Part shown: one piece after another, positions 34,567-38,449 of the stretch | Position numbering within the stretch: the first letter of the stretch is position 1 | How the letters are laid out: each line of letters begins with the position of its first letter | Assembly (NCBI RefSeq): GCF_004765795.1 | Contig: NZ_SBIV01000010.1 | Span: forward strand, 62,001 to 103,246 | Length of the DNA stretch: 41,246 nt | Source: Halorussus marinus | GTDB taxonomy: Archaea > Halobacteriota > Halobacteria > Halobacteriales > Haladaptataceae | Reading direction: 5' to 3' | Program-made: the position numbers and the translations under genes | The notes under the pieces: generated by a model | Seen by the model: the letters and a program-made list of their open reading frames with translations, nothing else | The model's database searches: none | What the model was told of the DNA's origin: nothing

Positions 34567-34577
34567 CACGACCTACG

Positions 34578-34795
34578 ACTTTTTACAGCGGTCGCACGGA
34601 AAGACGCTTCGCGTCTTTCGAGCCTCGGCTCGCTTCGCTCGCCGAGACGCCCCGAGCGGCGCTCGCTTGCAAAATCTCGATCAAAAACACCGGGAGAGCG
34701 AAACTCTCCCGAGCCTGCGTTCTCCGCTCACGCAGACGCGGCGCTCCTCCCTTCGGTCGTCGCTTGATCCGCTCGCTCACGCCCGTTCGCTCGTG
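34578..34795. repeat. REP-like palindromic intergenic repeat, copy 2 (expanded with extra hairpins)
   Basis: Shares two blocks with 15604-15701. Inserted hairpins include GAAAGACGC-TTC-GCGTCTTTC (34599-34619) and CGGGAGAG-CGAAA-CTCTCCCG (34691-34711). Confidence 0.75.
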
Positions 34796-34949
34796 ATGCG
34801 ATTGCTCGTGCACGCGCTTGCGCGGTATCCCGTGGGTCGGCAGTCACGGTGAAAACGTGTGGACTGATGCGTCTTCGCACCCGTCTTCGTCCGGCGAGTG
34901 CGCGACGTTCTCCCAAACGCTTTTGAGCGATTGCGAACAACTTCCGGGT

Positions 34950-35039
34950 ATGCCATACGAACCCCGACTCGGTGGGATCGACGGCCAGCCACGGCGACGC
35001 CACTCGGACGCGGGGTTCGACTTTTTCTTCGCGGCCTGA
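34950..35039 (+). CDS. Putative Phe-rich leader peptide of pheST (MPYEPRLGGIDGQPRRRHSDAGFDFFFAA)
   Basis: TTTTGA box at 34921-34926, leaderless spacing to ATG 34950; 4 Phe in 5 codons near the end; 150 nt upstream of pheS. Confidence 0.62.
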   Translation: MPYEPRLGGIDGQPRRRHSDAGFDFFFAA

Positions 35040-35189
35040 ACTGAGAGCGGCGGACTCCCCCGTCGAGCGAGAACTCGCCGGCGACGAAACCGCTCGGGGC
35101 GTCCGACCCGGAGCCGCGCGCATCGGACGCGCTTCAGAAACGATAAACGGTCGCACAGGGTTGTACCCATCAAGAGCACACCACGCACG

Positions 35190-36698
35190 ATGAAACTACC
35201 AGAGTCACAGGCCGCGGTCCTGCGGGCCGCGAGCGCCGACGAGTCGCGGAGTATCGAACGGTTGGCCGACGAGACGGGCCACAAGCCCGAGACGGTCACC
35301 GGCACCGTCTTCGAACTCGAAGACGAGGGGCTGGTCGCCGTCAAGGAGTCGATCGAGGAGACGGTGACGCTCACCGACGAGGCCCGCGAGTACCTCGATT
35401 CGGACCTGCCGGAGGTCGACCTGTACGAGACCGCCCTCGACGCCGGGGCCGACGCCGACCCGGTCGAGATGGGTCGCGTCATCGGACAGTCCGGGCTCGA
35501 AGGTCCGGCCGTCGACATCGCGCTCTCGAACTACGCCCGGAAGGGGTACGGCGTGATCGAGAGCGGCGAGATCACCGCCGACCCCGACGCCGACCCCGAG
35601 AGCGACGCCGAGGCCGGCGCACTGGCAGACCTCGACGCCGGCGAGGCCGTCGCCGACGAGGCGGTCCTCGACCAGCTAGACCGTCGCGAACTGATCGAGC
35701 GCGACGAGTCGACCGTCCGGACGGTGACGCTCACCGACGCGGGCGTGACCGCGCTGATGGAGGGCGTCGAGACCGCCGAGACCGTGGGCCAGCTCACCCC
35801 CGAGATGCTGACCTCCGGGGAGTGGCGCGACGTGGAGTTCGCCGAGTACAACGTCGAGGCCGACGCCCAGCGCGTCGACGGCGGCAAGACCCACATCCTC
35901 CGCCAGACCGCAAACAGGGTCAAAGACACCCTCGTCGGGATGGGTTTCGAGGAGATGGAGGGCCCTCACGTCGACGCGGAGTTCTGGATCAACGACTGCC
36001 TGTTCATGCCACAGGACCACCCCGCGCGGACTCACTGGGACCAGTTCGCGTTAGAGACCCCGCGCGAGATCGACGAGCTTCCCGAGGAGTTGGTCGAACG
36101 CGTCCGGGACGCCCACCGAAACGGCGTCGGCGAGGACGGCGAGGGCTACCACTCGCCGTGGACCGAGGAGGTCGCGAAGGGGGTCGACCTCCGTGGCCAC
36201 ACCACCTCGCTGTCGATGCGGTACCTCTCGGGCAACGAAGTCGGCGACCTCGAACCGCCCCAGCGCTTTTTCAGCGTCGAGAAGGTGTACCGCAACGACA
36301 CCCTCGATCCGACCCACCTGCTCGAGTTCTTCCAGATCGAGGGGTGGGTGATGGCCGAGGACCTCTCGGTCCGGGACCTGATGGGCACCTTCGAGGAGTT
36401 CTACGCCCAGTTCGGCATCACCGACATCGAGTTCAAGCCCCACTACAACCCCTACACCGAGCCGAGCTTCGAGCTGTTCGGCACGCATCCGACGACGGGT
36501 GAGATGGTCGAGATCGGGAACTCCGGAATGTTCCGCGAGGAGGTGCTCGAACCCCTCGGAGTCGACTGTGACGTAATGGCGTGGGGGCTCGCGCTCGAAC
36601 GCCTGCTCATGCTGATGTACGGCTTCGAGGACATCCGGGACGTCCACGGGACGCTCGCGGACCTCGAACTGCTGCGGGAGACGGAGGTGCTACACTGA
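35190..36698 (+). CDS. pheS: Phenylalanine--tRNA ligase alpha subunit
   Basis: FMPQDHPAR, LRGHTT, VYRNDTLDPTHLLEFFQIEG, YNPYTEPS, AWGLALERL. Confidence 0.97.
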   Translation: MKLPESQAAVLRAASADESRSIERLADETGHKPETVTGTVFELEDEGLVAVKESIEETVTLTDEAREYLDSDLPEVDLYETALDAGADADPVEMGRVIGQSGLEGPAVDIALSNYARKGYGVIESGEITADPDADPESDAEAGALADLDAGEAVADEAVLDQLDRRELIERDESTVRTVTLTDAGVTALMEGVETAETVGQLTPEMLTSGEWRDVEFAEYNVEADAQRVDGGKTHILRQTANRVKDTLVGMGFEEMEGPHVDAEFWINDCLFMPQDHPARTHWDQFALETPREIDELPEELVERVRDAHRNGVGEDGEGYHSPWTEEVAKGVDLRGHTTSLSMRYLSGNEVGDLEPPQRFFSVEKVYRNDTLDPTHLLEFFQIEGWVMAEDLSVRDLMGTFEEFYAQFGITDIEFKPHYNPYTEPSFELFGTHPTTGEMVEIGNSGMFREEVLEPLGVDCDVMAWGLALERLLMLMYGFEDIRDVHGTLADLELLRETEVLH

Positions 36699-38449
36699 TG
36701 CCAGTCGTCGACGTGAACCCCGACGAACTCCGGGACCTGACCGGCCACGACGAGAAGAGCGACGACGAACTGATCGACGACATGTTCGGGCTCGGACTCG
36801 AGTTCGAGGGTCGGACCGAGGACGGCGACCTCCAGCTGGAGTTTGCGCCCGACCGCCTCGACCGGCTCTCGGTCGAAGGCGTCGCGCGGTCGCTTCGCTA
36901 CCAGTACGGCGACGACCGCGGCGTCTACGTCCCCGGCACGAACGACGCCGACTGGACCATCGCGGTCGACGAGAGCGTCCCCGACGAGCGGCCGTACGTG
37001 ACCGGCGCCGTGATCCGGGACGTGAGCCTCGACGAGGACGCGCTCGACTCGCTCATCCAGCTCCAGGAGAAGCTCCACGCCACGATGGGCCGCAAGCGCG
37101 CGAAGGGTGCGATCGGTATCCACGACCTGACGATGCTGAAAGGGGAAGCCGCCGCCGTCGAGGGGCAGTCGGCCGCCGGCAACTCCATCACCTACCGGGG
37201 CGTCGACCCCGACGGCGACCGGTTCGTTCCCTTGGACGCCGACGCGGAGATGACGCCCGCGGACGTTCTGGACTCGCATCCGACCGGCGAGACGTACGCC
37301 GACCTCGTGGCCGAGTACGACCGCTACCCCGCGATCTACGACGACATCGGGCTGTTCTCGTTCCCGCCGGTCATCAACGGCCGGCGGACCGAGGTCTCGA
37401 CAGACTCGCGGGACCTGTTCGTCGAACTAACCGGCACCGACCAGTGGACCATCGACCGGATGTGCAACATCATCTGCTATGCGCTCGACGCCCGGGGCGC
37501 GAAGGTCGAAGCGGTCGAGGTCGAGTACCCCGACCGGACGCTCGTGCGCCCCGACTTCGAGGTCCGAGAGAAGACGGTGACCCACGACCGGATCGAGAGC
37601 CTGCTCGGGATCGATCTGAGCGCCGAGCGCGTGGTCGACCTCCTCGAACGGTCGGGCCTCGACGCCGACCCCGAGGAAGTCGGCGACGACGAGGTCGCCT
37701 ACACGGTCGAGGTGCCGCCCTACCGGGTGGACGTGCTCCACCCCCTCGACGTCGTCGACGACGTGGGGCGGGCCTACGGTTTCAACGACCTCGAACCGCG
37801 CTACCCCGACGTGGGGACGGTCGGCGGCCGCCACGACCGCTCGAAACTCGAAGACGCCGCCCGCGAGGTGCTGGTCGGACTCGGCTTCGAGGACCTGCTG
37901 AACTTCCACATGATCAGCGAGCCGGAGAACTTCGACCGGATGCGGATCTCTCGGCCGGAGGGAAGCGACGCCGACCTCGACCACGTCGTCACGGGCGCCG
38001 CCGAGCCCGCGACCATCCTCGAACCGTACAGCGAGGACTACACCATGCTCCGGACGTGGGCGCTCCCGTCGCTCATGATGGTGCTCGAAAACAACACCCA
38101 TCGGGGGTATCCGCAGGACCTCGCGGAGATCGGGCTCGCGGCCCGGGTCGACGACGCCGAGAACACTGGCGTCGCGGAACGCCGGACGGTCGCGGGCGTC
38201 CTCGCGCGCCACGACGCCTCCTACGAGGACGCGAAGGCCCGCTTGCAGGCGATCACGCGCAACTTCGACGCCGACCTCGAAACCCCGGCGACCGACCACC
38301 CGTCGTTCATCGACGGGCGCGCCGCGGCGGTCGTCATCGACGGCGAAGACGTGGGCGTTATCGGCGAAATCCACCCCGAAGTGCTCGTCGAACACGACCT
38401 CGAACTCCCCGTCGCGGCCTTCGAGTTCCGACTGGACGCGCTGGCGTAA
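36698..38449 (+). CDS. pheT: Phenylalanine--tRNA ligase beta subunit
   Basis: DRLDRLSVEGVAR, IQLQEKLH…GRKR…AIGIHD, SFPPVING, PPYRVDVLH; TGATG coupling to pheS. Confidence 0.96.
   Translation: MPVVDVNPDELRDLTGHDEKSDDELIDDMFGLGLEFEGRTEDGDLQLEFAPDRLDRLSVEGVARSLRYQYGDDRGVYVPGTNDADWTIAVDESVPDERPYVTGAVIRDVSLDEDALDSLIQLQEKLHATMGRKRAKGAIGIHDLTMLKGEAAAVEGQSAAGNSITYRGVDPDGDRFVPLDADAEMTPADVLDSHPTGETYADLVAEYDRYPAIYDDIGLFSFPPVINGRRTEVSTDSRDLFVELTGTDQWTIDRMCNIICYALDARGAKVEAVEVEYPDRTLVRPDFEVREKTVTHDRIESLLGIDLSAERVVDLLERSGLDADPEEVGDDEVAYTVEVPPYRVDVLHPLDVVDDVGRAYGFNDLEPRYPDVGTVGGRHDRSKLEDAAREVLVGLGFEDLLNFHMISEPENFDRMRISRPEGSDADLDHVVTGAAEPATILEPYSEDYTMLRTWALPSLMMVLENNTHRGYPQDLAEIGLAARVDDAENTGVAERRTVAGVLARHDASYEDAKARLQAITRNFDADLETPATDHPSFIDGRAAAVVIDGEDVGVIGEIHPEVLVEHDLELPVAAFEFRLDALA

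Follow-up and report, generated by a model that had tools for sequence, protein, structure and literature searches.

A conserved Phe-rich leaderless uORF upstream of haloarchaeal pheST as a probable Phe-tRNA-sensing leader peptide

Cognate-codon leader peptides are a textbook form of bacterial gene control, and pheM-pheST, pheL, trpL and hisL of Escherichia coli are leader-peptide attenuators of this kind. The locus described here, which lies within a 41,246-nt stretch of Halorussus marinus DNA (hereafter referred to as the window), raises the question of whether a short Phe-rich ORF located ahead of the pheST genes of an archaeon serves a comparable purpose. An initial annotation of the window had proposed a pheM-like attenuator, in which a ribosome stalled on Phe codons would mask a U-tract or refold the leader and so allow pheST expression.

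The pheST leader and its distribution among haloarchaea

The genes pheS (35190..36698, + strand), encoding the PheRS alpha subunit and presumed to be the regulated gene, and pheT (36698..38449, + strand), encoding the beta subunit, were assigned above their family cut-offs (PRK04172, 595.8 bits with a cut-off of 350, and pheT_arch, 451.7 bits with a cut-off of 282.65, respectively), as was the aspartate kinase gene upstream of the leader. The genome harbours one tRNA-Phe, with anticodon GAA, and encodes aCPSF1. In agreement with the initial annotation, the leader encompasses a uORF of 29 codons (34950..35039, + strand), the product of which ends in GFDFFFAA (TTC GAC TTT TTC TTC for the Phe-rich portion) and the stop codon of which is separated by 150 nt from the pheS start at 35190. 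Its identification as a leaderless uORF is based on the ORF call, conservation and a translated ortholog. Four of five consecutive codons near its end specify Phe (35016..35030, + strand), and positions 35022-35030 also represent the only U-rich tract of the leader. Among the 139 promoter-led short ORFs of this genome, the window uORF is the only one with at least three Phe residues in its last 10 codons, and its product did not match any peptide family. As in classical attenuators, a short uORF with clustered cognate codons is thus located upstream of the cognate gene.

The predicted promoter of the leader, P1 (34916..34940, + strand), consists of a BRE-like AA at 34916-34917 (-34/-33), the previously noted TATA-like TTTTGA at 34921-34926 (-29 to -24) and AA at -11/-10, with the A of ATG 34950 as predicted transcription start. 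Across 68 leaders, the P1 profile displayed A at frequencies of 0.93/0.94 at -34/-33 and T at 0.85-0.99 from -29 to -26, with starts having been chosen partly on the TATA-like box itself. Between the aspartate kinase gene, the stop codon of which is followed by a T5 run (34580-34584), and P1 lies a palindromic repeat of a dispersed type (34575-34801), which has an 88% identical copy on another contig (C2) and, itself included, yielded 37 BLAST pieces genome-wide.

Conservation was examined in a main sample of 81 loci, comprising the window and the best 80 of 459 pheS loci. In 64 of these haloarchaeal loci, pheS is preceded by a short ORF in which two or more Phe codons lie near the end; this ORF contains four Phe codons in 37 cases, three in 22 and two in five, and varies in length between 23 and 50 codons (13 length classes). 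Upon inspection, 68 loci were shown to carry the leader, including four damaged versions, of which two (L001 and L013) are one base out of frame and two (L067 and L073) are devoid of a stop codon; all four are metagenome assemblies. The leader is absent from 13 loci of several lineages, and in a quick PheS tree its losses were scattered, with Halorussus representing the rows closest to the window; as kin are not independent, these counts describe spread rather than significance. In a second sample of 40 loci, selected by pheS similarity only, the leader was present in 31, or in 26 of 34 following removal of six duplicates.

To anchor the reading frame without reference to the frame itself, the start was chosen according to the promoter, and U content served to locate the tract. 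The best Phe frame coincided with the start frame in 53 of the 56 loci which passed the filters, the exceptions being two frameshifted loci and one mis-anchored start. In-frame Phe codons are therefore conserved upstream of pheS in most of the Halobacteria sampled, and the U-tract is not, as a plain sRNA terminator would have it, conserved without frame or ATG.

A covariance model built from 40 leaders produced matches in 119 out of 151 genomes of the class, with a single match in 115. In the present genome, it matched a single place (next best match, E 0.08), and the scan revealed no extra copies of the leader. All strong matches that were inspected corresponded to one leader per genome, positioned before pheS. 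Four second matches in other genomes were rejected, as L100, L102 and L103 resemble coding sequence without a promoter, and the remaining one represents the reverse strand of the same leader. Among 132 genomes of a phylum sample outside the class, nothing convincing was found (one weak match, E 0.03), a result which shows only that the model does not reach further. Two loci may contain decaying or variant leaders, these being L094 (G143:C12:101786), with an apparent ACG replacing the start codon, and L104 (G054:C1:2017679), with a longer, rearranged uORF. Locus L021, titled Candidatus Pacearchaeota, carries a pheS and leader that group with Natrialbaceae and is likely a mis-binned contig.

The Haloferax volcanii ortholog, HVO_2948A (sORFribo5), is likewise a leaderless uORF, which encodes 26 aa ending in GFGVFFLTA and heads a 212-nt pheS leader (PMC4983044, PMC10117724). 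Babski et al. 2016 mapped a TSS to its ATG, assigned this as the 212-nt 5′ UTR of pheS and listed the 26-aa uORF in their Table 2, with no additional TSS marked there (PMC4983044), while Hadjeras et al. 2023 called HVO_2948A translated by Ribo-seq and leaderless (PMC10117724, Suppl. Table 5D), in a row that contains no MS cross-reference. The uORF does not appear among the start sites that Gelsinger et al. 2020 tabulated from harringtonine data (PMC7261190). In the accessible portions of the reports that list it, it is given as a small ORF without function, and Phe sensing, helices and attenuation are unmentioned (PMC4983044, PMC10117724).

Published tables furthermore provide expression values for this ortholog (PMC12482152, Tables S1 and S2). 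In controls, RNA-seq gave a TPM value of 761 for the uORF, compared with 157 (pheS), 121 (pheT) and 16 (upstream gene), and upon peroxide treatment 569 for the uORF versus 94 for pheS. Ribo-seq TPM values were 134 for the uORF and 235 for pheS. In this one dataset, HVO_2948A RNA was therefore five to six times as abundant as pheS RNA, a ratio that may be inflated as TPM is applied to an 81-nt feature, and comparison of RNA-seq with Ribo-seq points to an excess of leader RNA with a low ribosome load. Such an excess could come from decay rather than termination. The proposal that the transcript of pheST encodes a leader peptide rich in Phe is thus supported, as start codon and frame are kept, the ortholog was called translated and starts at a mapped TSS, and leader RNA exceeded pheS RNA in the above dataset.

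Leader RNA structures and the U-rich tract

The two stem arms reported in the initial annotation, CGAACCCCG (34958..34966, + strand) and CGGGGTTCG (35011..35019, + strand), were retrieved here as helix 1, the 3′ arm of which holds the first Phe codon (35016-35018). The 5′ arm, at about nt 8-17 of the transcript, thus pairs with an arm of the Phe-coding region and would lie within the expected footprint of an initiating ribosome. Helix 1 was paired in 96% of alignment cells, with four of nine pairs changed on both sides, and only 10 of 5000 codon shuffles produced a Watson-Crick stem of 9 bp beginning at nt 6-10. When helix 1 was combined with a second structure (hairpin 2, below), 91.5% of cells were paired and 130 cells were changed on both sides; none of 500 shuffles reached this level and all slid registers were at most 53% paired, in a test whose structure had itself been obtained from this alignment. 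The folding energy of the leader was not unusual (z -0.36) and folding z-scores were uninformative, so that structural support comes from conservation and covariation and not from folding energy. In L093, L095, L097 and L101, all outside the training set, GAA/TTC is replaced by GGA/TCC, changing both arms of helix 1 and converting the first Phe into Ser. Because both arms changed together and Phe was traded for Ser in these four loci, helix 1 appears to be kept for its own sake. At the peptide level, the conserved ends read M-x-x-E-[PS] and GFGFFF, with a middle part devoid of conservation, whereas helix 1 covaries. A search of Rfam, which covered the Phe leader, T-box and all other families, returned no match at gathering score and none over the leader at E values of up to 5.

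Hairpin 2 (35045..35095, + strand), which had escaped the initial annotation, is present in 65 of the 68 leaders and in most loci begins 0-5 nt after the uORF stop codon; it is also absent from L088-L090. It is composed of a lower stem (35045-35050/35090-35095), an internal YGGAN/NGAAA loop (35051-35055/35085-35089) with three purine-purine oppositions, and an upper stem that is variable and weakened in this genome, yet supported by compensatory changes in all eight pairs. A kink-turn, i.e. an L7Ae site, was rejected on register, as its pairs were formed in 23-43 of 65 leaders per position, compared with 58-63 of 65 for the symmetric-loop register. A T-box requires a U at the Y position of GGYGG; this candidate was likewise discarded, since the motif contains C in about half of the loci and no Rfam match was obtained. 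The internal loop is almost invariant though its flanking stems vary, which suggests a protein site or tertiary contact. Its GAA is also the tRNA-Phe anticodon, but is not positioned in a terminal loop.

The leaders of L088-L090, from three related genomes, are reduced, lacking hairpin 2 as well as the downstream promoter-like element P2 described below, with pheS starting 35-39 nt after the uORF stop codon. As read by eye, a mini-ORF of six codons, with ATG as start in two loci and TTG in the third, shares an ATGA overlap with the pheS start and could allow re-initiation. In view of the absence of hairpin 2 and P2 from these loci, the minimal unit would comprise the promoter, uORF, helix 1 and Phe tract.

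The Phe codons form the only U-rich stretch of the leader, and at least six U residues occur within the 10 nt following helix 1 in 56 of 62 leaders. TTT accounts for 53 of 224 Phe codons in leaders (24%), compared with 55 of 1216 in pheS (4.5%) and 10% genome-wide, with TTC representing the other 171 leader codons, while Val at one tract position is encoded by GTT in 11 of 11 codons, albeit among kin that are not independent. U thus appears to be favoured beyond what is needed for Phe coding. You et al. 2024 describe a preference of FttA for cutting at U and for a U-rich stretch located 9-14 nt upstream of the cut (PMC11616081). When the U of the stop codon was taken as cut site, positions -9 to -14 contained a mean of 3.9 U out of 6; the stop-codon U and Phe tract would therefore fit FttA geometry, in part since the Phe codons lie near the stop.

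In contrast to the attenuators of E. coli, no intrinsic terminator was found downstream of the stop codon: none of the 65 leaders with hairpin 2 had more than four U residues in the 10 nt following it, and between hairpin 2 and pheS no 10-nt segment contained more than five. The refolding part of the initial proposal was not supported either, as there is no supported antiterminator helix that is mutually exclusive with the others. The one candidate, formed by the Phe arm and the 3′ strand of hairpin 2, was rejected because it displayed no compensatory change and its mean pairing probability was negligible, never exceeding 0.04 in any simulated ribosome state. A translational switch at the pheS start was dismissed as well, since across 59 leaders the predicted access stayed at about 0.6 whichever of the five ribosome states was simulated.

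A parallel Trp leader and the proposed read-out of the Phe leader

A uORF before a TrpRS gene is listed in Table 2 of Babski (PMC4983044). In the present genome, a uORF of leaderless type that encodes Trp-Arg-Trp lies 157 nt upstream of the second TrpRS gene (L111:1134-1193, at G000:C2:437728 and thus not in the window; homologs are L114-L143). In a survey of 201 genomes, the uORF with the best promoter contained at least two Trp codons in 27 of the best 30 of 65 matches; for the remaining three, a Trp uORF was the second candidate in two and a single Trp was present in one. The cognate codons of this leader are not U-rich. Its design is that of the Phe leader, with an 8-bp helix that pairs roughly the first 15 nt with an arm within the ORF and shows compensatory changes in three columns among 29 sequences. 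The finding of two synthetase genes that are each led by codons for their own amino acid represents the strongest argument for sensing. The Trp leader, the ortholog of which is HVO_A0126A in the leader of HVO_A0127, also exhibits a conserved GGCNTNACCC motif near the stop codon and a pyrimidine-rich tract. Since its sensing codons do not coincide with the U/C-rich tract, the mechanism may be easier to take apart in this leader.

Taken together, we consider it very probable that the uORF ahead of pheST acts as a Phe-tRNA-sensing leader peptide. That it does so by setting the extent of read-through into pheST, through premature termination that depends on a factor, is the reading we favour with modest confidence; stalling of the ribosome at the Phe codons, its effect on read-through and the identity of the factor are all inferred. 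Transcription from P1 would start at the uORF AUG, where a ribosome would load at once, this start and its translation being known for the Haloferax ortholog. With ample Phe-tRNA, the ribosome would finish and leave, upon which helix 1 would close over the start region and hinder reloading, and the U-rich Phe tract would be left bare for aCPSF1/FttA, causing the transcript to be cut or released. Conversely, when Phe-tRNA is scarce, a ribosome sitting on the Phe codons would cover the tract and polymerase would run into pheST. Intrinsic termination at the Phe tract would not be gated by the ribosome, since polymerase would decide before the ribosome reads the tract, so that masking of the U-tract, as originally proposed, would be compatible only with a delayed, factor-dependent decision. 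Exclusion between ribosome and FttA, with the ribosome shielding nascent archaeal RNA, is stated as a hypothesis in PMC11616081. Hairpin 2 may serve as a timing or 5′-protecting element, which is dispensable in one genus, and P2 may supply a basal level of pheST.

This second element, P2 (35139..35174, + strand), is located directly before pheS and was not seen in the initial annotation. It contains AA at 35139-35140 and ATAAAC at 35143-35148 (the box thus covering 35139-35148), spaced as the AA and TA box of P1, and has a predicted start at about 35173. The motif was identified in 73 of 81 loci, including 12 of the 13 leader-less ones, and at positions not fixed by the search pattern the profile showed C (0.74) at -1 and A (0.95) at +1. 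With respect to the earlier reservation that pheS might possess its own TSS near 35165-35190, a conserved promoter-like element with a predicted start in this region therefore exists, but no TSS was called at P2 in the published Haloferax dRNA-seq data (PMC4983044). P2 could make pheS largely independent of P1.

RNA depth was analysed by mapping four raw runs from two studies to L086, the uORF and spacing of which match the printed ones. Same-strand depth was continuous through the leader in all four runs, to which P2 could also contribute by feeding pheS. No excess depth over the uORF was observed in these runs, with values below or near the pheS level; an 80-nt structured RNA could be lost from such libraries, which is offered as an excuse and not as a result. 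Depth halved over about 50 nt around P2 and recovered within pheS. Three runs, all from one study, showed a pile-up of fragment 3′ ends at 860-863, while 5′ ends accumulated at 909 in three runs and at 962 in a single run, these positions corresponding to the two feet of hairpin 2. As a similar pile-up and drop at L086:641 inside pheS points to possible library bias, these pile-ups were not counted as evidence. A term-seq 3′ end in the leader, which had been suggested as a check on termination, is not listed for Haloferax in the supplement of Berkemer et al. 2020 to the extent available (PMC7237163).

The missing term-seq end is among the observations that would suit a different output, whereby the same uORF senses Phe-tRNA and acts through RNA cleavage or stability (hairpin 2 shielding the new 5′ end), through occlusion of P2 depending on the extent of P1 transcription, or through re-initiation at pheS, rather than through termination at the U-tract. 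The conservation of P2, the depth dip around it in L086 and the end pile-ups at the feet of hairpin 2 point in the same direction, although the similar pile-up and drop at L086:641 argues that these depth and end signals may reflect library bias. Occlusion of P2 is difficult to generalize, since L088-L090 lack both P2 and hairpin 2, and the constant predicted access of the pheS start speaks against an effect at that site. This explanation is possible, but on balance rather unlikely.

Dispensing with sensing altogether, a constitutive structured RNA or weak terminator might dampen pheST, in which case the frame would be kept for ribosome clearance and Phe would be a by-product of selection for U. 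Such selection is consistent with the excess of TTT and GTT, as is a leader RNA role with the four loci that gave up the first Phe for Ser while retaining helix 1, and with the low ribosome load of the Haloferax uORF relative to its RNA (PMC12482152). However, 171 of 224 Phe codons are TTC and not TTT, the tract is read as Phe and not as Leu or Ser in 53 of 56 loci, the leader occurs once per genome and before pheS in the strong matches inspected, and the cognate codons of the Trp leader are not U-rich, which renders this explanation improbable. Still less credible, and very improbable in our view, is a function of the peptide itself, for example with its C-terminal GFGFFF motif binding PheRS or the membrane. 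Its conserved ends, M-x-x-E-[PS] and GFGFFF, and the translation of the ortholog would be in keeping with this, but both ends coincide with the arms of helix 1 and vary in concert as RNA, the middle varies freely across lengths of 23-50 codons, no family match was obtained and the available row for the ortholog carries no MS cross-reference (PMC10117724).

Comparison with known systems

The uORF has already been catalogued, and no regulatory reading of it surfaced in searches of the open literature. A search for cognate-codon leader peptides in archaea likewise surfaced none in open literature, most subscription papers lying outside its range, and the word 'attenuation' does not occur in the accessible text of two reviews (PMC8116511 and PMC13675443). 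Whether haloarchaea possess their own family of amino-acid-sensing synthetase attenuators, combining leaderless cognate-codon uORFs, a start-locking helix and an aCPSF1/FttA read-out, is in our estimation evenly balanced. If true, ribosome-mediated attenuation would exist in Archaea, with sensing codons doubling as termination signal and with the eukaryote-like nuclease aCPSF1/FttA replacing the terminator/antiterminator switch. The mapped and translated ortholog in the genetically tractable Haloferax volcanii would provide access to attenuation and transcription-translation coupling in Archaea, with the paired Trp leader as a built-in specificity control.

The leader shares with E. coli pheM, pheL, trpL and hisL a short cognate-codon uORF that heads a synthetase operon, helices that overlap the ORF and a hairpin that begins at the stop codon. 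It differs from these systems in its leaderless start, the lack of both a supported antiterminator and a U-tract behind the downstream hairpin, the presence of a second promoter-like element downstream and the absence of an Rfam match; furthermore, its sensing codons are the U-tract and its helix would lock the start region. Because two defining features, terminator and antiterminator, fail, it was not filed as a classical attenuator. aCPSF1/FttA-dependent terminators resemble it in that the U-rich tract at -9 to -14 from the stop-codon U fits their optimum, though the available text places them at the ends of transcripts and does not mention that they are used conditionally within a translated leader (PMC11616081). 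By analogy, the haloarchaeal leader appears closer in logic to the factor-dependent attenuation of E. coli tnaC, as in both the ribosome, once stalled, would block the site at the uORF end where a termination factor loads. Here, hungry codons would cause the stall, which in tnaC depends on the nascent peptide together with free amino acid, and aCPSF1/FttA, a nuclease, would take the role of Rho.
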